Shown here one piece after another: positions 2,399 through 53,490 of a stretch of 53,490 nucleotides of DNA; positions within the stretch are counted from its first letter, which is position 1, and every line of letters begins with the position of its first letter. Under the pieces are notes generated by a model, which worked only from the letters and a program-made list of their open reading frames with translations, ran no database searches and was not told the DNA's origin. This DNA is from Syntrophomonadaceae bacterium (GTDB taxonomy: Bacteria; Bacillota; Dethiobacteria; DTU022; PWGO01). Made by a program: the position numbers and the translations under genes. The DNA is taken from positions 1 through 53,490 of the forward strand of contig PUKQ01000096.1 of NCBI GenBank assembly GCA_003550565.1, read 5' to 3'.

Positions 2399-2876
2399 AA
2401 AACTAAAAAAACCCGAAATAGATATGGAAAGGCTTACGCACATAGTGAACAGTTATAAGTATCAAAAATGGTCTTTAATCCCTTTGGTACAGGACATTCA
2501 AGCTGAATTCGGCTTTATTCCCCCTGAATCCATACCCATTATTGCCGATGCTTTAAACCTATTTCCCAGTGAGGTGCAGGGAGTAGTTTCTTTTTACGCA
2601 CAGTTGTATACAGAGCCAAGGGGTAGAAACATAGTTCGTGTTTGCCGGGGAACGGCTTGTCATGTTCGTGGGGGCAAAACAGTGCTAAAACTGGTAAAAA
2701 AACAGCTGGGATTACAAGAAAACCAAACTTCTGAAGACCTGGAATATACTTTAGAAACAGTAGCATGCCTTGGAGTTTGTGCTCTTTCCCCCAGCATGGT
2801 TATAAATAACCAGGTATATGGAAATATGAACCCCAAAAAATTAAAGCTCTTATTTAAGGGGGAGGAGGATAGTTGA
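2391..2876 (+). CDS. NuoE/HydC-type thioredoxin-like [2Fe-2S] subunit
   Basis: 161 aa. VCRGTACHVRG ... CLGVCALSP gives the four-Cys pattern of NuoE/HndA. It overlaps the upstream gene by 8 nt, which suggests translational coupling. Confidence 0.85.
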   Translation: MSEKLKKPEIDMERLTHIVNSYKYQKWSLIPLVQDIQAEFGFIPPESIPIIADALNLFPSEVQGVVSFYAQLYTEPRGRNIVRVCRGTACHVRGGKTVLKLVKKQLGLQENQTSEDLEYTLETVACLGVCALSPSMVINNQVYGNMNPKKLKLLFKGEEDS

Positions 2877-5800
2877 TTATGCAAAAACGCACTGTATTTG
2901 TTTGCCAGGGAACCGGATGCTTTTCCAGTGGCTCTCAGGCTCTCTATGATCATTTACTTACGGAAGTAAAACGCTTGCAAATTCAGGATGCTGAAGTAGA
3001 TTTTACCGGATGCCATGGATTTTGTGAACAAGGGCCCATTGTCATCGTAGAACCGGAAGGAATATTTTACACTCGCGTTCAATCTGAGGACGCTTCCGAA
3101 ATAGCATTATCTCACCTGCAAAAAAACATACCGGTAGAGCGGCTCTACTATCGAGATCCTTTGAGTGGAGAGGCGATACCTTATTATAAAGATGTTAATT
3201 TTTATCAAAAACAACAGCGAGTAATTTTGGAAAACTGCGGGCATATAAACCCTGAAAATATTGAACATTCAATAACAAAAGGAAAATACCGGGGATTGGA
3301 AAGGGCCCTGCTAAATTTATCTCCCCAACAGGTCATCGAGGAAATAAAAGCATCGGGACTACGTGGCCGCGGGGGAGCCGGCTTTCCCACAGCGCGCAAA
3401 TGGGAATTTTGTTTTAACGCTCCCGGACCCAAAAAATATGTGATCTGTAATGCCGATGAAGGCGATCCCGGAGCTTTTATGGATCGTTCCATCCTGGAAG
3501 CCGATCCTCATGCGGTAGTAGAAGGTTTAACTATCGCCGGCTATGCTGTTGGTGCTGATGAAGGATATATTTATGTGCGCGCCGAGTATCCTCTGGCAGT
3601 GAAAAGACTGCGAATGGCCATTAAAGAAGCCTTAGATAAAGGTTTTTTGGGTAAAAATATTATGGATTCCGGTTTTAATTTTACCCTGAATATTAAAGAA
3701 GGTGCCGGTTCTTTTGTGTGCGGTGAAGAAACAGCCCTTATAGCTTCTATCGAAAGCCGTCGGGGAATGCCCAAGCCTCGTCCTCCTTTTCCTGCTCAAT
3801 CCGGGCTGGATGGAAAGCCAACGGTTATAAACAATGTTAAAAGTCTGGCAGCTGTTTCAGCCATTATGCGGCGTGGAGCAGATTGGTTTGCTTCTATAGG
3901 CACTGAAAAAAGCCGGGGAACAGTAGTTTTTGCCTTAACTGGAAAAGTAGCCAATAGTGGACTGGTGGAAGTAGAAGCAGGTACACCACTATCTTCCATC
4001 ATTTTCGATATAGGCGGTGGTATTCCTCGGGGCAAAAACTTTAAAGCTGTCCAAACCGGCGGTCCTTCGGGAGGATGTATCCCGGCACCTTACATGGATA
4101 CCCCGGTAGAATTTGAAAATCTGGCTCGCCTGGGATCCATCATGGGATCAGGGGGCATGGTGGTTTTGGATGAAAGCACTTGCATGGTAGAAATTGCCAG
4201 GTATTTTCTCAGCTTCACTCAATCGGAATCTTGTGGGAAGTGCACCCCTTGCCGCTTGGGCACCAGGCAAATGTTGGAGATATTAACCCGCATTACCCAG
4301 GGTTTGGGTCGAGACGGAGATATCGAGGCTCTCTACAATATTGCGAAAACAGTGAAGGAAGGCTCTTTATGTGGATTAGGACAAACTTGCCCTAATCCGG
4401 TTTTAACAACACTTGATTATTTTCGTAAAGAATATGAAATGCACATAAGAGAGAAAAAATGCCAGGCTGCGGTCTGCGATGCGCTTATGATTTCTCCCTG
4501 TCAACACACCTGCCCCGTGGGGGTAGATGTGCCTCGCTATGTGGAAGCTATTTCACGGGGGGCATATCTGGAATCGTTAGAGATAATCAGAGAACGTAAT
4601 CCTTTTCCCGCTATTTGCGGACGAATTTGCCATCATCCATGTGAAATGAGGTGCCGTCGTGGTGAACTGGATGATTCCCTGGCTATCAGGGCGTTAAAAC
4701 GTTTTGCCGGCGACTGGTATTTTGATAATATTCAAGAACTTCCTCCACCCGAACCTTTTGAGCGCCTTTATTCGCAAAATATTGCCGTGGTTGGGGCAGG
4801 CCCCTGCGGGCTTTCTTGCGCATATTTTTTAGCCCAGCTGGGATACGGAGTTACCATTTTCGAAGCTTTGCCTGTAGGCGGAGGAATGCTTTCTGTGGCT
4901 ATTCCTGAGTTTCGGCTACCCGAAAAAGTTCTTGAGGAAGAAATTAATTATATCCAAAATTGTGGGGTAGAAATTAAGTATAACACCCCGATTAACGTTA
5001 ATTTTACCATTGAAGATCTTAAGCAAATTGGTTATGATGCTGTATTTATTGCCGCCGGAGCTCAAAAAAGCCAGCAAATAGGAATACCCGGTGAAATTGA
5101 AGATTTGGAAGGATTTTATTATGGTTTACGTTTCCTGCGGGATGTAAAGATAGGCAAGACGGTATCTATTGGCAAAAAAGTGATAGTTATCGGCGGAGGT
5201 AATGTTGCTTTGGATACTGCCCGCACGGCTGTTCGCATGGGAGCAGAGCAGGTTGAAATATTTTATCGCCGCACCGAGGAACAAATGCCGGTTTCGGAAT
5301 TTGAGTACAAAGAAGCTTTAGATGAAGGAGTGAACGTGAATTTTCTGGTGAGTCCTACGCGCGTTGTAAGCGGTAATTGGAAGGTAACGGGAATAGAGTG
5401 TATTAAAATGAAACTGGGTGAGCCCGGCAGCGATGGAAGGCGTCGACCGGTACCGGTATCGGGAACTGAATTTTTTGCCGCAGCAGATACCGTATTTGCT
5501 TCCGTGGGACAGGCCCCTGATCTTTCATTTTTGCCAATTGATAGCGCCCTGGAGCGCTCTAGAATGGAAACCCTGGTGGTAGATGAAAATAGTCTTTCTA
5601 CAAATGTGCCGGGTGTATTTGCCGGAGGCGACTTTGTTACCGGCCCTGATATGGTAGTTGAGGCCATTGCGGCGGGAAGAAGAGGGGCGTTGGCTATAGA
5701 TAAGTATTTTAGAAAAGATCCTTCGCGGGTTTTAATGTATGATCTTCCTCTAAGTATGGGTATGGGAAAGGAGGAAGATGAGGAAGAAGGCTCTGAAGGC

Positions 5801-5971
5801 CTTGAAGAGGAATTGGAGGAAGAAACCTGGCAACCACAATTTCGACCCGAAACACCTCAACTTTCCGTCTTAATTAGGAAAAAGAGTTTTCAAGAAACAG
5901 AATTATGTTTTTCAGAAGAAGAAGCGGTTCAGGAATCGAAACGGTGCCTCAGGTGTGATCTGGAAAGATAA
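2873..5971 (+). CDS. Fusion flavoprotein: Trx-like [2Fe-2S] domain, NuoF/HydB NADH-FMN-FeS core and GltD/NfnB-type FeS-FAD-NAD(P)H oxidoreductase
   Basis: N-terminus: VFVCQGTGC...GCHGFCEQGP. NuoF motifs: GLRGRGGAGFPT and ESCGKCTPCR. GltD/NfnB-type region: CQHTCPVGVDVPRY...ICGRICHHPCEMRCRRG. Two Rossmann motifs: VVGAGPCGLSCAYFLA and VIVIGGGNVALDTA. There is an acidic E/D-rich tail and a terminal CLRCD. ATG at 2879 after GGAGGAGGA is the more likely start than TTG at 2873. Confidence 0.85.
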   Translation: MIMQKRTVFVCQGTGCFSSGSQALYDHLLTEVKRLQIQDAEVDFTGCHGFCEQGPIVIVEPEGIFYTRVQSEDASEIALSHLQKNIPVERLYYRDPLSGEAIPYYKDVNFYQKQQRVILENCGHINPENIEHSITKGKYRGLERALLNLSPQQVIEEIKASGLRGRGGAGFPTARKWEFCFNAPGPKKYVICNADEGDPGAFMDRSILEADPHAVVEGLTIAGYAVGADEGYIYVRAEYPLAVKRLRMAIKEALDKGFLGKNIMDSGFNFTLNIKEGAGSFVCGEETALIASIESRRGMPKPRPPFPAQSGLDGKPTVINNVKSLAAVSAIMRRGADWFASIGTEKSRGTVVFALTGKVANSGLVEVEAGTPLSSIIFDIGGGIPRGKNFKAVQTGGPSGGCIPAPYMDTPVEFENLARLGSIMGSGGMVVLDESTCMVEIARYFLSFTQSESCGKCTPCRLGTRQMLEILTRITQGLGRDGDIEALYNIAKTVKEGSLCGLGQTCPNPVLTTLDYFRKEYEMHIREKKCQAAVCDALMISPCQHTCPVGVDVPRYVEAISRGAYLESLEIIRERNPFPAICGRICHHPCEMRCRRGELDDSLAIRALKRFAGDWYFDNIQELPPPEPFERLYSQNIAVVGAGPCGLSCAYFLAQLGYGVTIFEALPVGGGMLSVAIPEFRLPEKVLEEEINYIQNCGVEIKYNTPINVNFTIEDLKQIGYDAVFIAAGAQKSQQIGIPGEIEDLEGFYYGLRFLRDVKIGKTVSIGKKVIVIGGGNVALDTARTAVRMGAEQVEIFYRRTEEQMPVSEFEYKEALDEGVNVNFLVSPTRVVSGNWKVTGIECIKMKLGEPGSDGRRRPVPVSGTEFFAAADTVFASVGQAPDLSFLPIDSALERSRMETLVVDENSLSTNVPGVFAGGDFVTGPDMVVEAIAAGRRGALAIDKYFRKDPSRVLMYDLPLSMGMGKEEDEEEGSEGLEEELEEETWQPQFRPETPQLSVLIRKKSFQETELCFSEEEAVQESKRCLRCDLER

Positions 5972-5980
5972 AAAGGAGGG

Positions 5981-6655
5981 ATGATCTTGAAATCTATAAC
6001 CAGGCTAAAACCTTATGCAGAAATTATGCAACAGCTGGAAGATTGCAACCGAGTTTTTATAGTGGGGTGCGGTACTTGTGCTACGGTGGTTCAAACAGGG
6101 GGGGTAGAGCAGGTAGAAGCTATGAAAGAGCAACTGCAGGACTCAGGGATGCTGGTAACCGGCTGGACGGTTATACCCACTGCCTGTGACGAGATGACTT
6201 CTGCTTCAACTGCTGAACATGAATCAGCCATCCAAAGCGCAAATGGAATATTGGTTATGGCTTGTGCTCTGGGGGTGCAGAGGCTAAATCTTTATACAGG
6301 CAAACGAGTCTTACCCGCTCTTGATACTTTGTTTATGGGGTTGGAAGAAAGTCCCGGCTATTTTGTGGAAGCTTGCGACCAGTGTGGAGAGTGCATTCTT
6401 GGCTATACGGCAGGGATATGCCCGGTAACTGCCTGTCACAAGGGTTTACTTAACGGCCCGTGTGGTGGTACCAACAAGGGTAAATGTGAAGTGGATCAAG
6501 AAAAAGATTGTGCTTTTACTCTTATATATCAGAAGTTAAGAGACCTGGGCCGGCCGGATTTAATGAAGCATTATCACCCCCCTAAAAATGCGCAGGCATG
6601 TCCTAGGCCAAAAGTTAAGATTCTGGAAGCAAAGGAGACAGAACAATGGATTTAA
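5981..6655 (+). CDS. metV: MetV, the Cys-rich small subunit associated with acetogen-type methylene-THF reductase
   Basis: 224 aa. Cys-rich motifs VGCGTCATV, CDQCGECILGYTAGICPVTACHKGLLNGPCGG and KCEVD. It sits immediately upstream of metF and overlaps it. RBS AAAAGGAGGG lies just before the ATG. Confidence 0.8.
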   Translation: MILKSITRLKPYAEIMQQLEDCNRVFIVGCGTCATVVQTGGVEQVEAMKEQLQDSGMLVTGWTVIPTACDEMTSASTAEHESAIQSANGILVMACALGVQRLNLYTGKRVLPALDTLFMGLEESPGYFVEACDQCGECILGYTAGICPVTACHKGLLNGPCGGTNKGKCEVDQEKDCAFTLIYQKLRDLGRPDLMKHYHPPKNAQACPRPKVKILEAKETEQWI

Positions 6656-7536
6656 AATTTAAAAGTTTACTTGATTCCGGAAAGTTTGTAGTGACTGCAG
6701 AAGTGGCACCGCCTAAAGGAATTGAGCTTGAACAGATGAACCATCACATTGAGCTTCTTAAAGGCAAAGTAGATGCTTTAAATGTAACCGATCACCAAAG
6801 TTCAGTTATGCGTTTCCCTTCCCTGGGAGGCTGCCTTGCCATTAAGGAAGGAGGCGGTGAAGCCATTTTGCAAATGACCTGCCGTGATCGCAACCAGATA
6901 GCCCTGCAGTCTGATCTCCTGTTTGCATACTCCCGGGGTATAAGAAATGTCCTTTGCCTTACCGGGGATGCTATGCCGGTGGGAGATCACCCTCAAGCCC
7001 GCGGTGTATTTGAAATGGACTCTGTTCAATTATTGCATTGTATAAACAGGTTGGAAGAAGGTTATGATATGGGAGGCAATGAATTAAAGGGAGAAGTTTC
7101 TTTTTGTAAGGGAGCAATAGTCACTCCGGAAGCAGATCCTTTAGAGCCTCAATTGAGCAAATTTGAAAAGAAAGTTGAAGCGGGTGTGGAATTTATTCAG
7201 ACCCAGGCTATCTATGATCTGGATAACTTTGCTGCTTTTATGGAGCATGCCCGACAATTTTCTGTAAAGATAATTGCCGGAATTGTTTTACTTACTTCTG
7301 CGAAAATGGCCAGATATATGAACAACAACGTTCCCGGCATTTTCGTGCCCCAGCATCTGATTGATGAACTGGCCGATGCTCCCAAAGGAACTGCTCTGCA
7401 GAAAGGAATTGAAATTGCGGGCCGCATGATTGCCACTTTACATAATGATGCCCTCTGTGATGGAGTCCATATCATGGCTATTAATAAGGAAGAAGTTGTC
7501 CCGGATATTTTGGAGGCTGCGGGTCTTCAGTCATAA
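6646..7536 (+). CDS. metF: 5,10-methylenetetrahydrofolate reductase (MetF)
   Basis: 296 aa. It matches the MTHFR family pattern: VTAEVAPPKG, ALNVTD, LQMTCRDRN, VLCLTGD and FIQTQAIYD. It overlaps the metV stop by 10 nt. Confidence 0.9.
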   Translation: MDLKFKSLLDSGKFVVTAEVAPPKGIELEQMNHHIELLKGKVDALNVTDHQSSVMRFPSLGGCLAIKEGGGEAILQMTCRDRNQIALQSDLLFAYSRGIRNVLCLTGDAMPVGDHPQARGVFEMDSVQLLHCINRLEEGYDMGGNELKGEVSFCKGAIVTPEADPLEPQLSKFEKKVEAGVEFIQTQAIYDLDNFAAFMEHARQFSVKIIAGIVLLTSAKMARYMNNNVPGIFVPQHLIDELADAPKGTALQKGIEIAGRMIATLHNDALCDGVHIMAINKEEVVPDILEAAGLQS

Positions 7537-8865: not shown

Positions 8866-11800
8866 TCAGCTTTTTGCGCTTTGGTATGAAAATGAAAGTT
8901 GATCATCCTCTGCATGTATGCTTCCCACTTGCCCATCGATATATATAGTGGCACCTGATTTAATGGTGACATTGTTAATTGTACATTCTTTATTGGTTTC
9001 GTCAACTTTAAGTTCTTTGCAATTAACAATGCATACTTTACCTAATTTCTGGGCCGATACCGCTGCGTGGGAAGTAATGCCTCCCCGGCTGGTAACCAGC
9101 CCGTCGCTTGTAAAAATCATGTGAATATCATCGGGTACCGTATCGGGTCGAATTAAAATGTGATTTTCCTCGGGATATTTATTTTTGTTTGCTTGTAGAT
9201 CTTCCATATAGAAGCTGACAATGCCTTTCATGAGGCCTCCACCAACACCAATGCCTTTACCGATCATATTTCCTCTTGCAGTGGTGTTGCTAAAGGAGGT
9301 TTCCTTTTCTTTGGGAGTAATTTCTTGTTCTCTGGTTTGAAGAAGGTACAGATCTTTTGGTTCCGGTGACTCAAAAGTAAATTCAATCTGCTGGTGGTTA
9401 AAACCGTGTGTTTCTATTAATTCGGCAGCAATTTCATACAGTCGTCGAAAGATTTTAGGAAATGCAGATTCAAGAGAAAATTCACAGTCCTGGTATTCAT
9501 TTATGCGCTGCCTTTCTGAAACAGGCATAGTATACACAAGGCCGGAGACGATATCTTCTCCCTGACTGCAAGTTGTAAAATCTCCATAGAGATGGATGCC
9601 GGGTTTATTCAATTTAGGATCATGGGTAAAAACTACACCTGTACCGGAGCTTCTTGAGCGGTTGCCCATTACCATTTTTTGGACGGTAACTGCTGTACCC
9701 CATTCATCGGCGATTTGCATATGTTTGCGATAAGCATTGGCTCTTTTAGAAGACCATGAATCAAAAACAATGGAAATAGCCTGCTTAAGTTGTTCAAAAG
9801 AATTCTCTGCAACGAAAACATTATTTTTGTTGAGTATTTTTTTATATTCTTTAGCTATTTCTTTCATTTGGGTTGCATTGAAGAAAGATTTAAGCTTAAC
9901 ATTATATCTTTTCTTATGATAAGCCATGATTTCATCAAATAAATCCCGATCAATGCCATACGCCATGCCCCAACTTTGGATAAATCGCCGGTAAGAATCC
10001 CAGCCCATCCAAGCTGTTTTGGCGTTTTTACCCAACTCTTCGGCGATAGCATCGTTCATTCCCACATTTAGCAGGGTAATCATGGCACCGGGCATTGAAA
10101 ATGCTGTGCCGGAACGAACAGACAAAAGCAAAGGGTTTTTAACACTGCCAAATTTCAATTCCTCGGTGGCCTCTAAGGCATGAACCTGGGTTAAAATTTT
10201 GTTTTCCAGGTCACGAAGCATATTTTGGTTTTTAAAAATAGTTTGCTTGTGCCTATAGACTTCTGTGGTGAGAACAAAACCGGGAGGTATGGGTAATTTG
10301 TAAGAAGACATCTTTTTAAGGTAATATGCTTTAGCACCCAGAAAGATTCGATTGTCCATAGGTAGGGTTTCTTGGGTTAAAGGGCTGATAGCCATTTCCG
10401 GCTTATAGCTGGTAGTGGTATGAATATGAACTTCCTTATTGTTTTCAATAAGGTTTTCGGTTACATTGATTAAATTAGCCAGGAAATTATCAATTTCCTG
10501 CATTAAAAAGGATGAGGACAAAATATCCCGGTAAAAAATCTCAGATACGTTCATGAGCGTTTCAGCTGAATCATCGTATATTTGGGGTATTACAATATTG
10601 AGAGCTTCATCGTAAAACCTCATAAAATATTTATTTATTGCTTCTTTGATGTGCCCGGACATGAATCTGAAAATGTTTATATATTGACCCAGTGTTACGC
10701 TGGGTGAAAAAAGGCTGTGCCAAAACATCTCTAAGGTGGAATTGAAATTTTGGTTTACTATCCCATCTAACTCAAGCCCTTTTTTGAATTGAACAAGCAG
10801 TGCATATATTCCATCAAGAGTGCGTGGCGAAAAATTTTCCAGGGGTAAGTCTTTTAATGTTCTTTCAATCAGATGAGAAGCTAATTGTTCCAGCCTGTAA
10901 ATTAGACCCAGAGCTTCGAATTTTGGTTCTCTGTATTCCCCATACATTGAAGGAATGCCTATGGCAATATGCCTTTTATAATAAATGTTTTCTACGGGTT
11001 CAGTTATATCTTCGTCCAGTATTATTTCATTTAAATCATTCATAAAAGCATACACTTGTTCCAGGGCTTGTTGATGCATGTTTTGTTCTAAAAATTCTTG
11101 CAGTTTCTTAATATCGTCTTTTTGGAAAAAATTACTGCGTGATAAAACATCAATGATGTTGTTGGCCTCGAAAGAATATTTAGCTAATAAAAGTTTATTC
11201 ATATGAATAAGATATATTAATCGTTGTTTATCTCTTTCATTTACCGAACTCTGGTTTTGGATGAAATCTGCAACTTCATCTTCAGGTAATTTCAAAAGTC
11301 CTTCAAAGTCAACGTGGAAGTGTTTGCATACTTCATTCATAAGGAGATTTATTTCTACAAAATACTCACTTTCTACATCAATAAATTCGATAACGTCGCC
11401 GGGCAATATAGCTTTTAGTGGTTTTAAGTCACCATTGTACCAAAAGCCGGCTACTTTTTTAATAAGCTCCACATGCATATTGTTACTTTCGGCGTGGATT
11501 TGCTTTCTAACAAAATGCATGAGCCGGTCTTTTCTTCCGGATAGTTCATCTATAGCTGTGCTGTAATCGCGCAGGTCTCCTTCGGCGCCAATTTCGTTGT
11601 AATAAACCGGAAAAACTCTGGCTAATTGCTTAACTTGTTTAAATACTAGCCCGATATTTGCGTTTAGTAGTTTAGTGATATCACGCTGGAAAAGATCAGT
11701 GTCAGAGATAAAAATGCCGCCAAGTTTTAGATTAACCAGAAGAGCCGACAGAAGCTTTTTAAAATTATAAGGTGATATCCTAATTAATTCCAGCCAAATT

Positions 11801-12948
11801 CTAATATTTTTCACATGGTTTGGGTTAGCTTTGGTTACCCAGTCATCAGTTATTTCAATTTTTCCCGGGAATACAAAGCCAAACTCAATAAGGTTATCTA
11901 TGTAATGGGTAATAATTTCCTGGTCATCAATATCGGCGATTTCTTTTCCTAGTGTAAGTTGACAATCTAAAATTGTCCCGGTGTGTTGTTCTTTAAGATC
12001 AATGAAAAGGTTAAACATAATGTCAATGAAAGGATAAACATCTTTGTTGTCAAGCTCTGCCAAAACTGTTTTAAGCAATCTATTCAGATCATAGAGGAGG
12101 TGATTTTTAAGAGGAATCATCCCCGGTAAATGTAACAAATATAAAAGGTAATAAATTTTCTCTATAGAGAGTTCAAGCTCTTCTATAAAATGTCGAAAGT
12201 AGTTGGCAATTTCTTCAAAAAAGAGGTTCGATTCAATTTCTTTCCAATCTTGAGATGCCTCGATTTGTTCTGATAGATCTTTAAAAAATTTTTTACCGAG
12301 TTGCTTAATTTTTTCCTGGCTTTCGGGTAGAAATAGTTCTGATTTGCTTTCTATCCATTCTTCGATATTTGTTGTATTTTCCCAATATGCACAGCTTTTT
12401 CGCAGTACATCTTTGGTAATATCGCAAATTTTTTGATTAAACTCCGGCACTTTGGCTACTTTTCTTAGATACATTTTAAAGTGCCTTGCATTCCGCAGGT
12501 AAATATCTTCATTTTTAGCCATTCCCTGTTCAATCAAGTCCAAGCATTTCCAAATTACCCTGGGGGGGTAGTTACCTTCTTTGGCCAGTTTGTCAACAAA
12601 CTCGAAGAGTGTTCTAACCAATTGTTCCTGTAGTTTTTCTTCCAGTTCTTTGCTTTGCAATTCTTCAAAAATACTTACCAAAAAAAGCAAGGCTTCTTCC
12701 GATTCTTCCACCGAATTATAAAGCCACAATTCGTTTATGCTGATTTTATGCAAACTTTTAATAATAAAAGCGTAATCGGGGTATGCGTGGTTATATTCTT
12801 TAATAAAATTTTCTGTTTTTTTGTTTATGCCCCAGTATGAAGCAGATAAAGAAATAAACCAGCGATGCTTTTCCGGAAACTCTATCTGCTCCTGTTTTGT
12901 TTGTGTTAAGTTAGCCTCTAATGCTTTTGACTTAAAAGTGCTTTTCAT
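8866..12948 (-). CDS. PPDK/PpsA-like phosphotransfer enzyme: ATP-grasp nucleotide-binding domain plus swivelling phospho-His domain, with an ~860-aa unknown helical N-terminal region and no PEP/pyruvate TIM-barrel domain
   Basis: 1360 aa. Residues ~864-1360 align by eye to the PPDK N-terminal two thirds: FLGAKAYYLKKM, LPIPPGFVLTTEV, LLLSVRSGTAFSMPGAMITLLNVGMND, DSYRRFIQSWG, GTAVTVQKMVMGN, SGTGVVFTHDP, GEDIVSG, QQIEFTFE, LYLLQTR and TSRGGITSHAAV. The His codon is at 9067-9069. The protein ends 66 aa after that His. Confidence 0.8.
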   Translation of the reverse strand: MKSTFKSKALEANLTQTKQEQIEFPEKHRWFISLSASYWGINKKTENFIKEYNHAYPDYAFIIKSLHKISINELWLYNSVEESEEALLFLVSIFEELQSKELEEKLQEQLVRTLFEFVDKLAKEGNYPPRVIWKCLDLIEQGMAKNEDIYLRNARHFKMYLRKVAKVPEFNQKICDITKDVLRKSCAYWENTTNIEEWIESKSELFLPESQEKIKQLGKKFFKDLSEQIEASQDWKEIESNLFFEEIANYFRHFIEELELSIEKIYYLLYLLHLPGMIPLKNHLLYDLNRLLKTVLAELDNKDVYPFIDIMFNLFIDLKEQHTGTILDCQLTLGKEIADIDDQEIITHYIDNLIEFGFVFPGKIEITDDWVTKANPNHVKNIRIWLELIRISPYNFKKLLSALLVNLKLGGIFISDTDLFQRDITKLLNANIGLVFKQVKQLARVFPVYYNEIGAEGDLRDYSTAIDELSGRKDRLMHFVRKQIHAESNNMHVELIKKVAGFWYNGDLKPLKAILPGDVIEFIDVESEYFVEINLLMNEVCKHFHVDFEGLLKLPEDEVADFIQNQSSVNERDKQRLIYLIHMNKLLLAKYSFEANNIIDVLSRSNFFQKDDIKKLQEFLEQNMHQQALEQVYAFMNDLNEIILDEDITEPVENIYYKRHIAIGIPSMYGEYREPKFEALGLIYRLEQLASHLIERTLKDLPLENFSPRTLDGIYALLVQFKKGLELDGIVNQNFNSTLEMFWHSLFSPSVTLGQYINIFRFMSGHIKEAINKYFMRFYDEALNIVIPQIYDDSAETLMNVSEIFYRDILSSSFLMQEIDNFLANLINVTENLIENNKEVHIHTTTSYKPEMAISPLTQETLPMDNRIFLGAKAYYLKKMSSYKLPIPPGFVLTTEVYRHKQTIFKNQNMLRDLENKILTQVHALEATEELKFGSVKNPLLLSVRSGTAFSMPGAMITLLNVGMNDAIAEELGKNAKTAWMGWDSYRRFIQSWGMAYGIDRDLFDEIMAYHKKRYNVKLKSFFNATQMKEIAKEYKKILNKNNVFVAENSFEQLKQAISIVFDSWSSKRANAYRKHMQIADEWGTAVTVQKMVMGNRSRSSGTGVVFTHDPKLNKPGIHLYGDFTTCSQGEDIVSGLVYTMPVSERQRINEYQDCEFSLESAFPKIFRRLYEIAAELIETHGFNHQQIEFTFESPEPKDLYLLQTREQEITPKEKETSFSNTTARGNMIGKGIGVGGGLMKGIVSFYMEDLQANKNKYPEENHILIRPDTVPDDIHMIFTSDGLVTSRGGITSHAAVSAQKLGKVCIVNCKELKVDETNKECTINNVTIKSGATIYIDGQVGSIHAEDDQLSFSYQSAKS

Positions 12949-46485: not shown

Positions 46486-47850
46486 CTAGTTTACTGCGGC
46501 CCGAAGGATGTTTGCTGCTATGGGCGCGGCAACCCTCAAGCCGGAGCCGCTGTTTTCCACTATTACCACAAAAGCAAGTGGATAATCTTCCCGGTCAAGA
46601 TATCCCGCAAACCAGGCATGGGGAAGTTTGCCCTCGCCTACCTCTGCGGTGCCGGTTTTGGCGCAAAGTTCAAGCCCTTTGAAATTCCACTCTCCATAAG
46701 TACTTGTGACATTATTTCTCATCATCCTCCCGAGCTTTTCGGCTGTTTTCGGAGGTATTATGCGTTCTTTTTTAATCAGAGGCCTAATAAGAGATGCAAA
46801 AGAACCTTCGTCAGAGAGTAAACTGGGTGGTACTCTAACACCTCCATTTGCGATAGCTCCCATGAAGGCCATAAAATTTAGCGGATTTGCCGTGTTAGTA
46901 TATTGCCCAATGCCGGCCCAGGCCAAGTTTGCGCCTTCTGCATCAGATAGATCTACACGTCCCATACCGGTTTGTATACCGTCCACATGCATTGTTGAGT
47001 TAAAACCGGCCGCATTTGCATAATCCTGTAATGTTTTTGAGCCAAGTTCAAGAGATATTTGGGCAAAAGTGGTATTGCAAGAAGTTGCCAGTGCTTGCTC
47101 TAAAGTGACTTCACCGCAAGGTGTAAGGCAACTTACTATATCTTCGCCTATTTGTATTTTTCCTTCACATTTATAAACTTTTTCTTTAACATGGGGAATA
47201 TGATCAATTGCCGCCGCTGTGGTTACCAACTTAAATATAGAACCGGGAACATAAACCGACGAAAGCAACCGGTTAATGTAAACACCTTCGTGCCTTGGAT
47301 CATCAAACGGTATATTCCCGGGATGTGCCGGGTCAAATGAAGGAGTGCTAACCATGCAAATTATTTCTCCTGTTTCATAATTATAGATGCCCACCGCGCC
47401 CTTGTGCCCGGCAAGTTCTCTGTATGCTGTGGCGCACAATTGGGCATCGAGATTAAGAGTGATATCATTACCGGATGTGTTCATATCATCAAATTCATAT
47501 ACTCCATTGAAGAAATTCCAACCGCTCAATCGATCTCGGAAGGCAACTAGTGCTCCGGTTGCCACATTGTCATTCAGGTCTCCTGTTGCATGCATAACAG
47601 CAGTGCGAATTGTTGTATCTTCATGGAAATTTATATTTCCTTCTATCATTTCTAAAAGCAATCTGCCCGAACGGTCATAAATATTACCTGTGGTATTCAA
47701 TTTGCCATCAGTATATAAGTGCCTGTTAGAAGAATGCTGCACCCATGTAGAAGCATTATTGATATAATTACCCAGAAATAATACAAGTCCCGTTAAAAGT
47801 AATAACGAGAAAATAAATAAAATGGCGGAACGCCTTATAATAAGCTTCAT
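46486..47850 (-). CDS. Class B penicillin-binding protein (transpeptidase; PBP2/PbpA-like)
   Basis: 454 aa. N-terminal TM anchor. The SxxK (PGSIFK), SxN (TSCNT) and KTG (AKTGTAE) motifs appear in order. It overlaps the upstream SEDS gene by 4 nt. Confidence 0.85.
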   Translation of the reverse strand: MKLIIRRSAILFIFSLLLLTGLVLFLGNYINNASTWVQHSSNRHLYTDGKLNTTGNIYDRSGRLLLEMIEGNINFHEDTTIRTAVMHATGDLNDNVATGALVAFRDRLSGWNFFNGVYEFDDMNTSGNDITLNLDAQLCATAYRELAGHKGAVGIYNYETGEIICMVSTPSFDPAHPGNIPFDDPRHEGVYINRLLSSVYVPGSIFKLVTTAAAIDHIPHVKEKVYKCEGKIQIGEDIVSCLTPCGEVTLEQALATSCNTTFAQISLELGSKTLQDYANAAGFNSTMHVDGIQTGMGRVDLSDAEGANLAWAGIGQYTNTANPLNFMAFMGAIANGGVRVPPSLLSDEGSFASLIRPLIKKERIIPPKTAEKLGRMMRNNVTSTYGEWNFKGLELCAKTGTAEVGEGKLPHAWFAGYLDREDYPLAFVVIVENSGSGLRVAAPIAANILRAAVN

Positions 47851-49631
47851 GATCTATCACCTTCTTTAATGTAATATTTTTTTGTTTTAGGTCTTAGGCG
47901 TTCATCAGCGGATTTGATAAGAGCAAGAAGCCCCCATGAAGCAATCATGGAAGAGCCACCTCTTGAAATAAAAGGTATGGTTATTCCCGTGAGGGGAAGT
48001 ACATCTACCGACCCCAGGACATTTAAAGCAGTTTGGATTAAGAAGATGGAAGCAGCTCCACACGCGGCAATTGCATAAAAGGAGGATCGGCATTTTTTGG
48101 TAAGAAGCAGGGCATAAATAGAAAAAAATACAATAATAAAAACTGCAATAAACGCTATGAGAAGTCCCCATTCTTCGCATAGCATCCCAAAAACCAGGTC
48201 AGTATCGGCAGCAGCGATGCCGGAAAGATAGCCATTGCCGCCTCCTACCCCTATAAGCCCTCCGCTGGCAGCGGCTATCATGGTTTGAGTTTGCTGGTAG
48301 CCGATGGTGTACGCATGATCCCATACATTGCCCCATGCTTCCAAACGAGTAGCTATGTATGGGATAAACGACGTTACTGCAATTGCTCCCAGTACAGCTC
48401 CCGATGATGTTAAAGCAATAGTTCGCAAATCTCCGGAACGCATGAATGCGATGACAATAAAAGCCCCAAAAAAAACTACTACCATGCCGAAATCTCTCAT
48501 AAGCACTAAAGAACCGACACATATTGCGGTGAACCCTATAAAAGCGGTCATGTTGCGGACAGTAAGAAGCCTGTCCAGGGTTGCCGTGCCGGCCATTATG
48601 AATGCAATTTTCACGAATTCCGACGGTTGGAAGGTTATAAAACCAAGGTCTATCCAGCGTTTTGCGCCAAAACGTACTTCTCCTATCGTTAGATTTAAAA
48701 CCAGCAGAACTAAAGCAGATGCTACCAGTATATATTTTAGCCTGTTTGCGCGTCCCAGGTCTCGAATAATTGCCTCAATTGCCATATAAACAGCAATTCC
48801 GAAAACAATGGCTAAAAGCTGGGTAAAAAGAGAATGAGGCGCAGCAGAGGCTACAATAAGTAAATTTAAACCACAAAGAAAGAAACAAAGTAGTTCCAGC
48901 TCAAAATATTTTCGGCTGTATTGGCGCGTAATGAAATAAAACAAGCATTCTACAAAAATGAACAAAAGAAAAACCTGCGGTATTATAGGATTTAAATTAT
49001 CTCCCATAGAAAGACAAACCTGCAGGCAGCCCAACGCCTGGAAAAGTAAAATTAAGAAGAAAGTTACACCTGTTTTCACCTGTTTGCTCGAGGAGATAAA
49101 ACTAGAAATAATATCTAATTGAGGGGCCTGTCCCGCTTCTTTTTCGCCCGGGAACAGTACCATTTCTTTTCCGCCTAAGGAAATAACATCACCGGGAGTT
49201 AATGATGCCGTTTTTTCGATTTTTTCCCCATTAACCTTTACTCCGTTTTTGGAATTCAAGTCGGTAATAAACCAGGTGCCATCACGAAAAGTAAGTACGG
49301 CATGGTTTTTTGAAATATAAGGTAGATTTATTACAATATCGGAGGAGTTGCTCCGCCCGATGGAATTTTCCCAGTGTTTAATAGGAGTTTTGGCGCCGCC
49401 CCTTGAGTAAAGATATCCCCAAACAGCTTTTTGTTTTCTAACTTGCAAGAGCGGAAGGATGCAACGCCATAGTATGGTAATTGCCAGTAGAGGCAAAATC
49501 CATCGAATTATCAATGTAAAAATTGCGGAAGGCAATTCCAAATTCATAATTTCCATAGTTGCAGAAATATCAGCAATGCTATTTATACACGAATCCCAAA
49601 TTTGCTTCAAAGATTCACCCAAATTATTCAT
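47847..49631 (-). CDS. FHA domain fused to SEDS glycosyltransferase (FtsW/RodA/SpoVE family)
   Basis: 594 aa. N-terminal hydrophobic segment. FHA core: IGRSNSSDIVINLPYISKNHAVLTFRDGTWFITDLNSKNGVKVNGEKI. About 10 TM helices follow with the SEDS motif FQPSEFVKIAFIM. Confidence 0.85.
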   Translation of the reverse strand: MNNLGESLKQIWDSCINSIADISATMEIMNLELPSAIFTLIIRWILPLLAITILWRCILPLLQVRKQKAVWGYLYSRGGAKTPIKHWENSIGRSNSSDIVINLPYISKNHAVLTFRDGTWFITDLNSKNGVKVNGEKIEKTASLTPGDVISLGGKEMVLFPGEKEAGQAPQLDIISSFISSSKQVKTGVTFFLILLFQALGCLQVCLSMGDNLNPIIPQVFLLFIFVECLFYFITRQYSRKYFELELLCFFLCGLNLLIVASAAPHSLFTQLLAIVFGIAVYMAIEAIIRDLGRANRLKYILVASALVLLVLNLTIGEVRFGAKRWIDLGFITFQPSEFVKIAFIMAGTATLDRLLTVRNMTAFIGFTAICVGSLVLMRDFGMVVVFFGAFIVIAFMRSGDLRTIALTSSGAVLGAIAVTSFIPYIATRLEAWGNVWDHAYTIGYQQTQTMIAAASGGLIGVGGGNGYLSGIAAADTDLVFGMLCEEWGLLIAFIAVFIIVFFSIYALLLTKKCRSSFYAIAACGAASIFLIQTALNVLGSVDVLPLTGITIPFISRGGSSMIASWGLLALIKSADERLRPKTKKYYIKEGDRS

Positions 49632-49965
49632 AAAATACCCTTTTTATAATGGAATTTTTACTTGATGCATTTAGCCTATGTCAATACTATTATACTAAAT
49701 ATTGGAGTTTATTATATTGGTAGATGAGAATTTTTATTATGTTTATTTTTTAACAAATTCTGATGTGGGTTATATTATTTAGTTTGCCGGAAAGGTTGAA
49801 AATTTTTAATTGCAAGGAGAAAAACTTGGTAGATTAAAATACCCTGACACCTTTTGACATGATAGATCTTTAAATTTGTGTAATATTTATATATTATTAA
49901 GAATACAGTTAACAAGAAAGTTAAGATGTTTAAGACTGCGAGGTGAATGAAGAACTTATAAAAGA

Positions 49966-50007
49966 AATAAAAAAAGAAAGAGTTAGCTATGCGTAGCTTC
50001 CTCTTTC
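49966..50007 (-). terminator. Rho-independent terminator downstream of the lipoprotein gene
   Basis: The plus strand reads GAAAGAG-tt-AGCTA-tgcg-TAGCT-tc-CTCTTTC (49976-50007), preceded by a run of 7 A. On the minus strand this is a 12-bp interrupted stem followed by TTTTTTT. Confidence 0.65.
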
Positions 50008-50041
50008 CTTTTATAAATAATTTAGCAATGTTAGTGTTCAA

Positions 50042-50614
50042 TCAGTCTTCAAAATAAACTACTGTGAATGCCGTTTGGCTCCCTTCCAGCCACTCGGCTT
50101 CAAAGTCCTGGGGGGTGCGAATCAAGATTGAAGGAAGATTAAGAGCATAGGTTTCACTTAATTGGTCGGCATCGCCTTGCCAAAGAACATAATCATAGCT
50201 TGCATGATCTACTTTTTCAGAATGCCATCCATCCATTTGTTCCTGGTAAAAATTGTAGACGTCCTCGGGAGGATCGGTTGCTAAAAGAAAGATGTCAGTG
50301 CTTTTTGGAGTTTCACCTGACCAACCAATACCGAAAGCGTGTGAGCCGGGGTAATGGGGATACGGCACCTCGTCTTCAGCAGGTAAGTTTTCTACTACAA
50401 GGTGGGGACAGTCAGCCGGTGGAGCCCAAAGATCCGAAGGAGCTGATGGGGCAGTGTCTGGTGTATCTTCAACTTCACCTGCATCAACATCAGCAACTTC
50501 TTCCAGTTCATCACTGATTTCAGCTGTTTCTTCACTGCTGCAACCGATAAAAGCTACTAATAAAATTAATAAGATGCTCATACAAAATAATTGCTTGAAA
50601 CGAATAAATCTCAT
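50042..50614 (-). CDS. Lipoprotein with acidic N-terminal linker, unknown function
   Basis: MRFIRFKQLFCMSILLILLVAFIGC has a lipobox (FIGC) after an h-region. ATG at 50614 lies 8 nt after GGAGGG. The ORF track extends to 50656. Confidence 0.65.
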   Translation of the reverse strand: MRFIRFKQLFCMSILLILLVAFIGCSSEETAEISDELEEVADVDAGEVEDTPDTAPSAPSDLWAPPADCPHLVVENLPAEDEVPYPHYPGSHAFGIGWSGETPKSTDIFLLATDPPEDVYNFYQEQMDGWHSEKVDHASYDYVLWQGDADQLSETYALNLPSILIRTPQDFEAEWLEGSQTAFTVVYFED

Positions 50615-50962
50615 CTTACTTTCCCTCCTATATCTTTTTTTTCTTGCCCGGGTCACAATAAATACGGCTGAAGTGAGAAAATTTTAACATAAATTTTACA
50701 CTGCGTCAAAAGAATTCAACAAAAAGGTGACACGAGTTTGTCACTTAGATTATTTAAAATATCATTTAATATGGAAAAACATGAATAAAGCATGGTTAAT
50801 TGTAATTATTTTATTTGTTACAAAAGGTTTATGAAAGAATTGTTCTTATATTTGGGGGGTCAAAGTCGCTATGGTTTGTCTTTTTTAAAAATAATAAGTT
50901 AAGGATTGTAAATTTTTGCATTAAGGATAATAGGTATTATTCTATTTAAAGGAGGTAAATCT

Positions 50963-53275
50963 ATGAGTTCTTTTGTGCACCTGCATGTCCATTCGGAATA
51001 TAGCCTTTTGGATGGGGCCATAAGGCTCCAACAACTTGCTTCTAAAACTGCGGAACTCGGTATGCCGGCAGTAGCCCTGACGGATCACCATGGGTTGTAT
51101 GGGGTTGTTAATTTTTATCAAAAAGCCTTAGCGGCAGGTGTAAAACCTATTGTGGGTTGTGAAATGTGTGTTTCTTCTGCTTCTTCCTTGGATGGGTATT
51201 ATGAAGAAAATACTTTGCCTCATCTGGTTTTGCTGGCCAGAACCATGGAGGGGTACCGAAACCTTATGCAGTTGGTTACTTTGGGATCTTGTGAGGGCCA
51301 AAACCATACGCCTCTTGTAAACAATGAAAAATTGAAGAGCCATGCTGACGGGATTACGGCTTTGAGTGGGTGTATGGCCGGGGAGATTCCCCGGCTTATA
51401 TTACACGATCAATTAGAAGAAGCGGAGAACATTGCTACCTTTTATGCTTCTGTTTTTGGAGATAACCATTTCTATCTCGAAATGCAGGATCATGGATTAC
51501 CCGGCCAGGCGAAAATTAATGAAGGACTGGTAGAAATCTCCCAAAAGCAGGGAATTCCCCTGGTAGCTACCAACAATGCTCATTATTTGGAAAAAGAAGA
51601 TAATAAAGCTTATGATGTTTTACTTTGTTTGAAGGAAGGAAAGATGATATATGATAAAGAAAGCCTAAGCTATAATTCATGTGAACTTTACCTGAAAAGC
51701 CCGTCAGAAATGCAGGAAATATTTAATAATTATTCCGAAGCATTAAAAAACACCATGGAGATTGCCGAAGACTGCAGTTTAAATTTGGAAGTCAGTTCTC
51801 CTTCCGTGATAGGAATCAATTTGCCGTCAGGCCAAACAGAAATTGAGTTTCTGCGACAGATTTGTACCCAAGGACTGTCATGGCGCTATAAATGGGCGAA
51901 TAATTCTCTGCAGAAAAGGTTGGATTACGAATTAAAGGTAATTGAGCAGATGGATTGCGCCGGTTATTTCCTGACTTTATGGGATATTGTACGTTATGCC
52001 CGTGAAAGGGATATTCAAATTGGCCCTGGCAGGGGATCGGCGGTAGGAAGTTTGGTAAATTACTGCCTTGGTATTACCGAGATAGATCCCATAAAACATG
52101 ATCTGGTTTTTGAATGTTTTTTTAATCCCACTTTGGTTAACATGCCAGATGTAACTATAGATATAAACGGTAAAAGGCGGGACGAAGTTATCGAATATAT
52201 GGAAAAAAAGTATGGAGAAGACAGGGTAGCACATATTATTCATTTTGGAGTTATGAGAAGCCGATTGGCGGTCAAAGCTGTGGGAAGGGTTTTAAATGTC
52301 CCCACGGCAACCCTGAAGCATATCATAGGGCTAATTCCCAATGAACCGGGGATGACCATTAGAAAAGCATTGGAGATCAGCCCGGAACTCCAATCTTATT
52401 ATGAAAATGAAGAACACAGGGAATTGCTGGATATATCCCTTGCTCTGGAGGGATTGCCTCGGAATGCTGTTGCTCAAGGAAAGGGGGTTGTTGTTGCCGG
52501 CGAACCTTTAGTTAAGCGCGTGCCTTTACAAAAATTAAATACAGGTAATAGAGTAGTCCAATTTCCGGAGCAGAAGCTAAAAGATATGGGGCTTGTTAAA
52601 TTTAATATCCAAAGCTTAAAAATTCTAAAGTATATGGAAGAAGCCCTCAAAAACATAAAACATCGGCGGGGAAAACAAATAAACATAAACATGATACCTC
52701 TAGATGACAAAAATACTTATCATTACCTCGTGGGAAGGGAAACTGAGGGAATATTCCTTTTAGCAAAGAAAGATATAAAAAATTTTTTGCGGGAATTAAG
52801 ACCAAATAATTTTCGCGAATTAACAGCAGCAGTTGCTCTTTGCCGTCCCGGGGTCTATGATCAAACTGCTGATTTCGCAAAAATAAAATATAGAAGCTTT
52901 TCCCTAAAAAATATTCCCGATAATGTGGTAAAACTCCTTCGAGAAACTTATGGTGTAATTGTTTACCAGGAACAAATTATGCAGATTGCTGCTGAAATTG
53001 CCGGCTTTCCATTAAGACAGGCTCATTTAATGCAGAGAGCTTTGAGTAGTAATCATTCTGAAGAACTTGGACATTATAGAAAACAATTTATAAAGGGAGC
53101 TAGCGCTAAAGGATATAAGCCTGAAGAGGGAGAAAGCACTTTCCAGTATTTGAAAATACATGCCCCATATGTTTATAATAAATCACAAGCAACTGCCTAT
53201 GCCTTTTTGATATATCAAACAGCTTATATAAAAGCTAACTATCCCGAGGAGTATAAAGCAGCATTATCAGTTTAA
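50963..53275 (+). CDS. DnaE (Pol III alpha, C-family polymerase) homologue, C-terminally truncated, with substituted catalytic residues
   Basis: 770 aa. PHP start: FVHLHVHSEYSLLDGA. Also HLVLLARTMEGYRNL, YFLTLWDIV and GPGRGSAVGSLVNYCLGIT. The palm motif reads MPDVTIDIN (canonical PDxDxDF), and KFNIQSLKIL replaces K-x-DFLGL. It ends at YPEEYKAALSV, just after the fingers-domain YP..F.AA motif. No beta-clamp-binding, OB or tau-binding region follows. The RBS is strong: AAAGGAGGT. Confidence 0.85.
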   Translation: MSSFVHLHVHSEYSLLDGAIRLQQLASKTAELGMPAVALTDHHGLYGVVNFYQKALAAGVKPIVGCEMCVSSASSLDGYYEENTLPHLVLLARTMEGYRNLMQLVTLGSCEGQNHTPLVNNEKLKSHADGITALSGCMAGEIPRLILHDQLEEAENIATFYASVFGDNHFYLEMQDHGLPGQAKINEGLVEISQKQGIPLVATNNAHYLEKEDNKAYDVLLCLKEGKMIYDKESLSYNSCELYLKSPSEMQEIFNNYSEALKNTMEIAEDCSLNLEVSSPSVIGINLPSGQTEIEFLRQICTQGLSWRYKWANNSLQKRLDYELKVIEQMDCAGYFLTLWDIVRYARERDIQIGPGRGSAVGSLVNYCLGITEIDPIKHDLVFECFFNPTLVNMPDVTIDINGKRRDEVIEYMEKKYGEDRVAHIIHFGVMRSRLAVKAVGRVLNVPTATLKHIIGLIPNEPGMTIRKALEISPELQSYYENEEHRELLDISLALEGLPRNAVAQGKGVVVAGEPLVKRVPLQKLNTGNRVVQFPEQKLKDMGLVKFNIQSLKILKYMEEALKNIKHRRGKQININMIPLDDKNTYHYLVGRETEGIFLLAKKDIKNFLRELRPNNFRELTAAVALCRPGVYDQTADFAKIKYRSFSLKNIPDNVVKLLRETYGVIVYQEQIMQIAAEIAGFPLRQAHLMQRALSSNHSEELGHYRKQFIKGASAKGYKPEEGESTFQYLKIHAPYVYNKSQATAYAFLIYQTAYIKANYPEEYKAALSV

Positions 53276-53360
53276 AGTAAGCTTTTTATTTCCCATATCA
53301 GCTCAAACCTGTGGCCCCTAATTGATTAACTTTTACCCTTCGGGAGCGTTGGTAACGGTA

Positions 53361-53490
53361 TTACTTGCAAGCGTTAAGCCGCTTATTAACATTTTCCCAG
53401 TTAACCAGGTTCCACCAAGCTTCGATGAACTCTGCTTTTTTGTTCTGGTATTGCAGGTAGAAAGCATGTTCCCAAAGATCAATAACTAAA
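53361..53490 (-). CDS. Fe/Mn superoxide dismutase, 3' end only (gene continues beyond window)
   Basis: This is not in the ORF track because it is too short. Reverse-strand translation from 53489 gives LVIDLWEHAFYLQYQNKKAEFIEAWWNLVNWENVNKRLNACK-stop. That matches the D-x-WEHAYYLxYxN...W..VNW C-terminal signature. Confidence 0.85.
   Translation of the reverse strand, partial: LVIDLWEHAFYLQYQNKKAEFIEAWWNLVNWENVNKRLNACK

Follow-up and report, generated by a model that had tools for sequence, protein, structure and literature searches.

The short dnaE gene and its domains

The 53,490-nt stretch of DNA analysed here, hereafter the window, comes from contig PUKQ01000096.1 of a Syntrophomonadaceae bacterium (assembly GCA_003550565.1). 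Close to its end lies a gene for a short homologue of DnaE, the alpha subunit of DNA polymerase III (Pol III alpha), called short dnaE in what follows (coordinates in Table 1). The protein of 770 amino acids (aa) ends in ...ANYPEEYKAALSV. The gene is monocistronic, with a divergent orphan lipoprotein gene on one side and a convergent superoxide dismutase gene (sod; PF00081/PF02777; gene calls in L001-L004) on the other, whose stop at window position 53361 leaves a spacer of 85 nt. The same gene with the same ends is present in four assemblies: the window's sequence is identical in GCA_003553635.1 and in the Logan assembly of SRR490134, and a 770-aa orthologue (P0001), 94% identical, occurs in ERZ27266004 (ENA) and GCA_964636865.1. 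Stop codons and frameshifts are absent from all four, and their agreement excludes an artefact of assembly or of the window edge. A first-pass annotation, made from the letters of the window, had described an intact open reading frame (ORF) behind a strong ribosome-binding site and a truncation that is genuine; both descriptions stand.

Pfam recognizes PHP (residues 6-177), DNA_pol3_alpha (296-548) and DNA_pol3_finger (555-717) and nothing else. There is no Pfam match to HHH_6 (PF14579), the (HhH)2 or beta-binding domain with the clamp-binding motif, before which the protein stops, and none to the OB fold (PF01336); the full-length DnaE of the same genome, P0004, has both HHH_6 (residues 831-919) and an OB fold. 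The beta-clamp-binding motif, OB fold and tau-binding C-terminus are thus missing, as first proposed, and with them all the parts by which DnaE attaches to the clamp, to single-stranded DNA or to tau. The truncation had been placed after the fingers; more exactly, the protein ends ∼10 residues beyond the boundary between the fingers and the beta-binding domain. In NCBIfam, every DnaE equivalog model stays below its cut-off (best NF005298, 905.7 bits against 1260) and the superfamily model TIGR00594 alone passes. The AlphaFold model has a mean pLDDT (predicted local distance difference test) of 88 and superposes on Thermus aquaticus Pol III alpha (2hpi) with a template-modelling (TM) score of 0.94 and a root-mean-square deviation of 2.2 Å, and the PHP-palm-thumb-fingers fold would accordingly be kept in this prediction.

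The missing part is not encoded nearby: tblastn found neither a DnaE C-terminal half, as a separate adjacent gene, nor a remnant of the lost C-terminal third in the 53-kb window or in the 22-kb locus L003. A possible in-frame relic directly past the stop (Table 1) lies in a tblastn alignment that crosses the stop codon, with a 5-codon insertion bearing TAA; it suggests a short vestige of the lost parental coding sequence, on weak evidence, as 6.7% of nucleotide shuffles scored at least as high. That short dnaE is the N-terminal half of a split gene, its product joined to a C-terminal half from elsewhere by trans-splicing or assembly as in cyanobacteria, is scarcely credible. Cyanobacterial DnaE-N has a similar extent (∼774 extein residues; NCBIfam NF007079 and NF005616 matches), and the models for the cyanobacterial N- and C-terminal halves adjoin near residue 738, not far from where the short protein stops. 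However, DnaE-N has an intact catalytic site, carries an intein fragment at its end and is joined to DnaE-C by splicing, whereas the short protein has mutated catalytic residues, no intein fragment at its C-terminus, an end 30 residues beyond the cyanobacterial split-intein site, no C-terminal homologue in the window or the 22-kb locus, and a complete dnaE in the same genome.

Descent from the resident DnaE1

The nearest full-length proteins are 52% identical to the short protein. One of them, P0004, is encoded on another contig of GCA_003553635.1, and P0124, of the same 90%-identity cluster, is encoded in the sister assembly that holds the short orthologue. Thus, short dnaE is not the only dnaE, a point on which the first-pass annotation had made its reading depend: two independently binned metagenome-assembled genomes (MAGs) each carry the short gene and a full-length dnaE of 1149 aa, a co-occurrence that rests on the binning of uncultured sources. 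In neighbour-joining trees, which are distance-based and involve long branches, the short clade and the parental DnaE clade nest together in 143 of 200 bootstraps under wide sampling and in ∼93% under narrow sampling, on a branch 4-5 times longer than those of full-length proteins. The closest named members of the parental clade are Dethiobacteria (Bacillota). Short dnaE is therefore a fast-evolving paralogue derived from the DnaE1 of its own lineage, not the replicase of the genome. It shares with DnaE1 (the Pol III alpha of the PolC + DnaE1 type, Clostridia-like Bacillota) the order of PHP, palm, thumb and fingers, besides identity, clade nesting and predicted fold; unlike DnaE1, it lacks the (HhH)2 or clamp-binding domain, the OB fold and the C-terminal domain, and has replacements of two of the three aspartates, of nucleotide-binding residues and of one PHP ligand. 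The duplicated DnaE1 lost its helix-hairpin-helix or clamp-binding, OB and tau-binding C-terminal domains and then diverged several-fold faster than its parent. Alignment of the DNA upstream of the short gene with that upstream of the parental dnaE gave no homology past the ribosome-binding site. A scan of a genome collection with the short protein returned ordinary DnaE loci of other phyla only, dominated by the conserved word YQEQIMQI.

One distant relative is informative. An exhaustive search of 1.84 billion cluster representatives found the short gene in its own cluster and five other short DnaEs, one of which, P0185 (785 aa, 42% identity), groups with the window protein in all 200 bootstraps. 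It shares the end point of the window protein and 15 of its 93 uniquely derived residues, against 5-9 in the other short forms, and is the more degenerate of the two.

The full-length dnaE of GCA_003553635.1 was called with 39 extra N-terminal codons (L005 6001-6117; 1188 instead of 1149 aa). Its true start is likely to be the conserved MYSFVHLHVH, which has its own GGTG ribosome-binding site.

Loss of the polymerase active site

Substitutions were read from residue-by-residue alignments to the Pol III alpha structures of T. aquaticus (2hpi), Escherichia coli (2hnh) and Mycobacterium tuberculosis. The equivalents of E. coli D401, D403, D405 and D555 are D396, T398, D400 and N548; D401, D403 and D555 are absolutely conserved across the C-family (PMC3919608). 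Replacement of two catalytic aspartates had been proposed at the outset. The Thr at the D403 position, within PDVTIDIN, is seen in the structure alignments and is common to both orthologues. The Asn at the D555 position is found in the window copy and not family-wide: P0001 still has D548 and E601, and N548 and A601 are derived in the lineage of the window, the N548 change being polarized against the parental DnaE clade.

The losses extend well beyond the aspartates. The alterations first noticed in LFERFLNPERV, ADLLRRAMGKK, NKSH and, in the PHP domain, ATNDVHY all recur in the structure alignments, where FERFLNPER reads FECFFNPTL, LLRRAMGKK reads LMQRALSSN, and the last two read NKSQ and ATNNAHY. 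Nine residues that contact the incoming deoxynucleoside triphosphate (dNTP) or the primer end are gone (R385C, R391L, H505Q, A506G, A507K, R691Q, K696S, K697N and H742Q), all at columns at least 97% invariant in 119 full-length DnaEs. Of the 219 columns with that degree of invariance, 64 are changed, whereas full-length DnaEs deviate at 1.1 such columns on average and at 11 at most; charged residues are affected most, with changes in 43% of the charged invariants and in 15% of the Gly/Pro ones. The composition has moved towards Asn and away from Asp and Arg. What is retained comprises D396, D400, K546 and the GPGRGS motif. Judged from alignment to solved structures, then, the triad is not intact and the polymerase catalytic residues are lost.

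It is very improbable that the protein nevertheless remains a polymerase, a distributive and clamp-independent repair enzyme with a site rearranged around D396, D400 and, in the sister lineage, D548. The Asp that is invariant across the C-family at the D403 position is Thr in both orthologues, the residues for the incoming dNTP are gone, the window copy lacks D548 as well, and P0185 lacks all three catalytic aspartates and the GPGRGS motif. These losses stand against the residues and motif just listed as kept, the D548 of the sister orthologue, the full catalytic triad of two unrelated short DnaEs (P0257 and P0269) and the presence, 1-8 kb downstream, of genes for a DinB polymerase, a Dam-like methylase and an Exo_endo_phos protein.

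The PHP domain

The PHP domain has kept eight of its nine metal ligands (H8, H10, D17, H42, E67, H87, C137, N205 and H207), so that the site reads HHDHEHCNH. The change of the eighth from Asp to Asn, which the first-pass annotation recorded with only a hint at its consequence, aligns with D226 of M. tuberculosis DnaE1, where D226N abolishes exonuclease activity (PMC5636811). An active PHP exonuclease is recognized by a nine-residue site HHDHEH[C/H]DH without deviation (PMC12926913), and the site of the short protein deviates from it. At the position of N205, T. aquaticus chain 3e0d has Asn and chain 2hpi has Asp. The beta-hairpin that guides the primer is degenerate too (QNHTPLVN against the family-invariant FYYKPRVD); its H115 and T116 occupy the aligned positions of M. 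tuberculosis K136 and W137, residues on the primer path into the PHP site whose mutation costs ∼90% of exonuclease activity (PMC5636811). The Asp-to-Asn change is found in five of six short clusters, that of the window included, and recurs in P0250, P0257 and P0264; among full-length sequences it occurs in 2 of 147. From these comparisons the proofreading exonuclease looks dead and is almost certainly lost along with polymerization.

Another reading keeps the PHP domain as an enzyme, a stand-alone metal-dependent phosphoesterase or nuclease for which the dead polymerase core serves as a DNA-binding handle. It is unlikely, although several observations speak for it. PHP is the best-conserved part of the short protein, eight ligands persist, asparagine can still coordinate metal, and a new His43 and a new Cys69 adjoin ligands H42 and E67. 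Bacterial PolX provides a precedent, with selection stronger on PHP than on the polymerase site (PMC12926913). Nevertheless, the same ligand change kills the M. tuberculosis exonuclease (PMC5636811), the primer-guiding hairpin is rewritten, one assembly has H10Q at a further ligand, and P0185 retains just six of the nine ligands (HHEHEHCNR).

The H10Q change, at a PHP metal-binding His, is the only difference between the copy in GCA_964636865.1 (L002 295-2607) and the ENA copy. It reflects either an assembly error or a true polymorphism at a residue that once belonged to the active site.

Selection on a probably non-catalytic protein

Between the window gene and its orthologue there are 98 nucleotide differences and no indel in 2313 nt. 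The 49 synonymous changes over 493 sites and 49 non-synonymous changes over 1817 sites give, for this one orthologue pair, dS 0.107, dN 0.0275 and dN/dS 0.26 (Fisher p=1.6e-10 against neutrality), where dS and dN are synonymous and non-synonymous divergence. Frameshifted or neutral orthologues, which the first-pass annotation had named as evidence against its reading, did not appear. The value lies within the range of ten neighbouring genes (0.07-0.34, pooled 0.18) and falls to 0.18 for residues 1-425, rising to 0.34 for residues 426-770. Purifying selection thus maintains the short gene, most strongly on PHP. A neutral simulation run on the parental coding sequence bears out the earlier argument that an open 2.3-kb frame is at odds with simple decay: at 6% protein divergence 3.5 premature stops are expected and 2% of runs have none, and at 40% divergence 19 stops are expected and none of 300 runs stayed open. 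A longer record comes from P0185. Since it shares the truncation and the losses, the truncated polymerase-dead form has persisted to 42% identity. The identity between P0185 and the window protein is 50% in PHP and 32-42% elsewhere; parental orthologues are 72-79% identical in every domain.

Collectively, these data make it probable that the short protein is a truncated DnaE1 paralogue that does not polymerize, almost certainly does not proofread and is kept by selection as a folded protein. Of the two outcomes first envisaged, a retained inactive scaffold is therefore supported over a decaying pseudogene by the dN/dS of 0.26 and the absence of indels and stops.

Several points weigh against this conclusion. 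For the full-length dnaE of the same two genomes dN/dS is 0.088, a ratio that differs from that of the short gene (p=1.5e-4), so that constraint on the latter is relaxed about threefold. Orthologues differ at 8 of the 219 formerly invariant sites, against 38 of the 546 others, which leaves the old constraint weakly visible; as the sites that differ include D548 and E601, some of the protein may be drifting. With three near-identical sequences and P0185 among 5.8 billion clusters, the family is tiny. No partner gene adjoining short dnaE was found. Finally, the alignment behind the AlphaFold model is dominated by active DnaEs, so the model cannot show that the fold is really kept.

The same relaxed ratio, differences at formerly invariant sites and narrow distribution, together with the loss of catalytic and many other invariant residues and the shift of composition towards Asn, would suit a functionless relic, i.e. 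a partial dnaE duplicate that is decaying and whose frame is open merely because little time has elapsed. Such a relic is improbable. Its dN/dS should not differ from 1, its 2313 nt should not be free of indels, the 3.5 stops predicted at orthologue divergence and the 19 at parental divergence should be visible, and neither the frame and end point, persisting in P0185 at 42% identity, nor the intact ribosome-binding site would be expected.

A possible binding role

For the short protein as a selected, inactive paralogue, a non-catalytic binding role with selection centred on PHP is favoured by the sequence features. The polymerase core (palm2 plus fingers) has a net charge of +17, against -4 to 0 in the parents. 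In Bacillus subtilis, DnaE associates with primed 3′ ends as well as with PolC, the helicase DnaC, DnaG, SSB and DnaN (PMC5627055). A binding role is favoured because the DnaE-core fold and this basic core are combined with such 3′-end and partner contacts in B. subtilis. Docking on the sliding clamp or the clamp loader would be impossible with the domains that are left, so that the protein would act outside the replisome, as a binding module without catalysis. It could attach there to a primer 3′ end or to one of the proteins that DnaE contacts, for instance the replicative helicase or PolC, and the binding would sequester, mark or mimic the partner and not extend DNA. A helicase-type partner is hinted at by P0185, whose gene sits 42 nt upstream of that of a 299-aa ATPase consisting of the DnaB C-terminal domain only, with altered motifs (FQLNN in place of SQLSR).

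Other stand-alone short DnaEs

The five other short DnaEs (P0185, P0250, P0257, P0264 and P0269) are metagenomic, 775-832 aa long, and consist of PHP, palm/thumb and fingers only. All stop at the same domain boundary, at real stops within contigs. P0185 is the true relative of the window protein, and the remaining four are not its closest relatives. Grouping of all short DnaEs in one ancient family was considered and rejected: it reached 150 of 200 bootstraps with a small taxon set and fell to 3 of 200 once the nearest full-length relatives were added, a sign of long-branch attraction. The short architecture therefore arose at least two or three times, with independent origins in other phyla.

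Their neighbourhoods have elements in common. The P0185 island holds, besides the DnaB_C-only ATPase, a WYL/WCX regulator, a 780-aa AAA+ protein with weak IetA-like matches and two GmrSD genes, and looks like a defence-island module built of replisome-derived parts. P0257 and P0269, which retain the full catalytic triad, likewise adjoin WYL/WCX regulators, and a PD-(D/E)xK-like motif is present in the adjacent ORFs of 377 and 306 aa (HIDIL..ILELK and HIDAM..LIEAK). P0264 is clustered with an HTH_3/M78-peptidase pair, three Metallophos genes and one AP_endonuc_2 gene. Most of these short DnaEs thus adjoin WYL or HTH/M78 regulators and nuclease-like genes, unlike that of the window: homologues of the WYL regulators, of the DnaB_C ATPase and of the nuclease-like ORFs are absent from the window and from loci L001-L003. 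No PADLOC defence-system model matches the window protein or the other short DnaEs.

It is tempting to propose, as a tentative and rather doubtful extension, that short DnaEs form a hitherto undescribed class of accessory C-family proteins that evolved repeatedly and acts in circuits of DNA damage or of defence against phages. Part of the class would polymerize independently of the clamp. The other part, including the window protein and P0185, would be catalytically inactive and would serve, as decoy or scaffold, to imitate the replicase towards a partner, e.g. a helicase-type ATPase. The window gene would then be a solo member of a family of C-family pseudo-polymerases, the first to be described.

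Comparison with known systems

Dead polymerase homologues serve as key scaffolds elsewhere, such as ImuB and the C-terminal half of eukaryotic Pol epsilon. The closest functional analogue of the short protein is ImuB, a polymerase homologue that has lost its catalytic residues and persists in a non-catalytic capacity (PMC12926913); the likeness is one of logic only. ImuB belongs to a different polymerase family, has a clamp-binding motif and is encoded in an operon with imuA and dnaE2, whereas short dnaE has no clamp-binding region, operon partner or LexA box. Bacterial PolX proteins with a dead polymerase site and the PHP-only ‘PolX-like’ proteins offer a second parallel, as their polymerase site has decayed under stronger selection on PHP (PMC12926913); their PHP site, however, is intact and active as an exonuclease, whereas that of the short protein carries a known inactivating change.

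C-family polymerases are regarded as enzymes whose three catalytic aspartates never vary. A large survey of the family required an intact active site and found PHP + Pol3 + (HhH)2 nearly universal (PMC3919608), and a second survey described inactive homologues solely for the Y, X, A and B families (PMC12926913). Full-text literature searches turned up no account of an inactive C-family protein that is retained. Since the large surveys by design left out homologues lacking an intact active site (PMC3919608), such derivatives have escaped record. If the conclusion reached here is true, a DnaE under selection without either activity and without docking modules implies that the Pol III alpha core is reusable for another task. 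The short DnaEs beside WYL regulators and defence genes point to where that role may be sought. Annotation pipelines will label the short gene ‘DNA polymerase III subunit alpha’, a name that misleads counts of replication systems in MAGs.

Table 1. Coordinates of short dnaE, its altered motifs and related loci (window positions unless a locus is named)
Feature	Position	Strand	Remarks
Short dnaE paralogue	50963..53275	+	Intact 770-codon ORF, ATG to TAA
Shine-Dalgarno AGGAGG	50950..50955	+	7 nt 5′ of ATG; kept in orthologue
PHP domain, residues 1-280	50963..51802	+	PF02811, E=3e-50; best-conserved part of short family
Degenerate PHP beta-hairpin QNHTPLVN	51299..51322	+	Family-invariant FYYKPRVD; family alignment
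Codon N205, eighth PHP metal ligand, Asp to Asn	51575..51577	+	Aligns with M. tuberculosis D226; ATNDxHY to ATNNAHY
Palm and thumb, DNA_pol3_alpha residues 296-548	51848..52606	+	PF07733, E=2e-76
PDVTIDIN, remnant of PDxDxDF	52145..52168	+	T398 codon 52154-52156, E. coli D403 equivalent; alignments to 2hpi, 2hnh
QGKG replacing invariant HAAG	52475..52486	+	Structure and family alignments
Codon N548, E. coli D555 equivalent	52604..52606	+	Derived in the window's lineage only
Fingers, Pfam residues 555-717	52625..53113	+	PF17657, E=4e-40; holds AHLMQRALSSN
AHLMQRALSSN replacing ADLLRRAxGKK	53021..53053	+	D688H, R691Q, K696S, K697N
NKSQ replacing invariant NKSH	53177..53188	+	Structure and family alignments
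Possible in-frame relic SKLFISHISSN	53276..53308	+	Parental LLTSHMSTT; tblastn; weak evidence
Convergent Fe/Mn superoxide dismutase gene, 3′ end	53361..53490	-	Context only; bounds the truncation; not part of the element
P0185 locus	L092 5797-9095 (ERZ27266011 contig, ENA)		P0185 and DnaB_C-only ATPase
P0257 locus	L094 6479-13216		
P0269 locus	L096 1878-7061		
P0264 locus	L097 973-14548		
P0250 locus	L093 1351-3678		

Neighbourhood and further observations

The divergent gene upstream of short dnaE (window 50042-50656, minus strand) encodes an acidic lipoprotein-like protein of 190-204 aa with a signal peptide (...FIGC). It is an orphan whose homologues among 5.8 billion clusters come solely from genomes carrying short dnaE; as it is confined to these genomes, the ancestral insertion site is not recoverable. 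In the divergent intergenic region, ∼220 nt upstream of short dnaE, lies a perfect inverted repeat, GTGACA-N6-TGTCAC (window 50727-50744). Both arms are kept in the sister lineage, and the repeat may be an operator site. No LexA box (GAAC-N4-GTTC) was found near short dnaE, promoter-like and terminator-like signals around it are at chance level in number, and the whole window has no match to an Rfam family.

Divergence along the locus (window 49800-53490 compared with L001/L002) forms a mosaic. A ∼1-kb tract (50263-51300) has ∼0.7% mismatches, the remainder of short dnaE 3-8%, and the sod-ArsP spacer 13%. At the short locus dS is 0.05-0.27, far under the 0.27-0.79 at the full-length dnaE locus of the same two MAGs (L005 against L091). 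These contrasts suggest recent recombination or transfer of the short dnaE region. Regulatory constraint on the conserved 306-nt upstream spacer was considered and dropped; since the spacer is part of the low-divergence tract, its conservation is more likely due to recombination.

Beyond sod, the sister lineage has a gene for a 421-aa major facilitator superfamily (MFS) transporter between ArsP2 and Exo_endo_phos (L001 5619-6884, L002 4570-5835) that is absent from the lineage of the window (L003 14218-14438). In both lineages, genes for the Exo_endo_phos protein, the Dam-like (MethyltransfD12) methylase and the DinB-type Y-family polymerase lie 1-8 kb downstream of short dnaE (L003 14438-20544), as separate transcription units; no LexA box was found.

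The remainder of the window includes, at 17-7536, genes for a formate dehydrogenase-like molybdopterin enzyme, for NuoE/NuoF-like subunits fused to a pyridine-nucleotide oxidoreductase and for MTHFR, a set associated with the Wood-Ljungdahl pathway, and, at 8866-12948, a gene for a 1360-aa protein with PPDK_N and PEP-utiliser domains. Both regions are ordinary chromosomal context without sign of a mobile element. Closer to short dnaE (46486-49631, minus strand), a gene for a 594-aa FtsW/RodA-family protein with an N-terminal FHA domain overlaps the start of a penicillin-binding transpeptidase gene, an arrangement that is a fused version of FHA-RodA-PBP (PBP, penicillin-binding protein).

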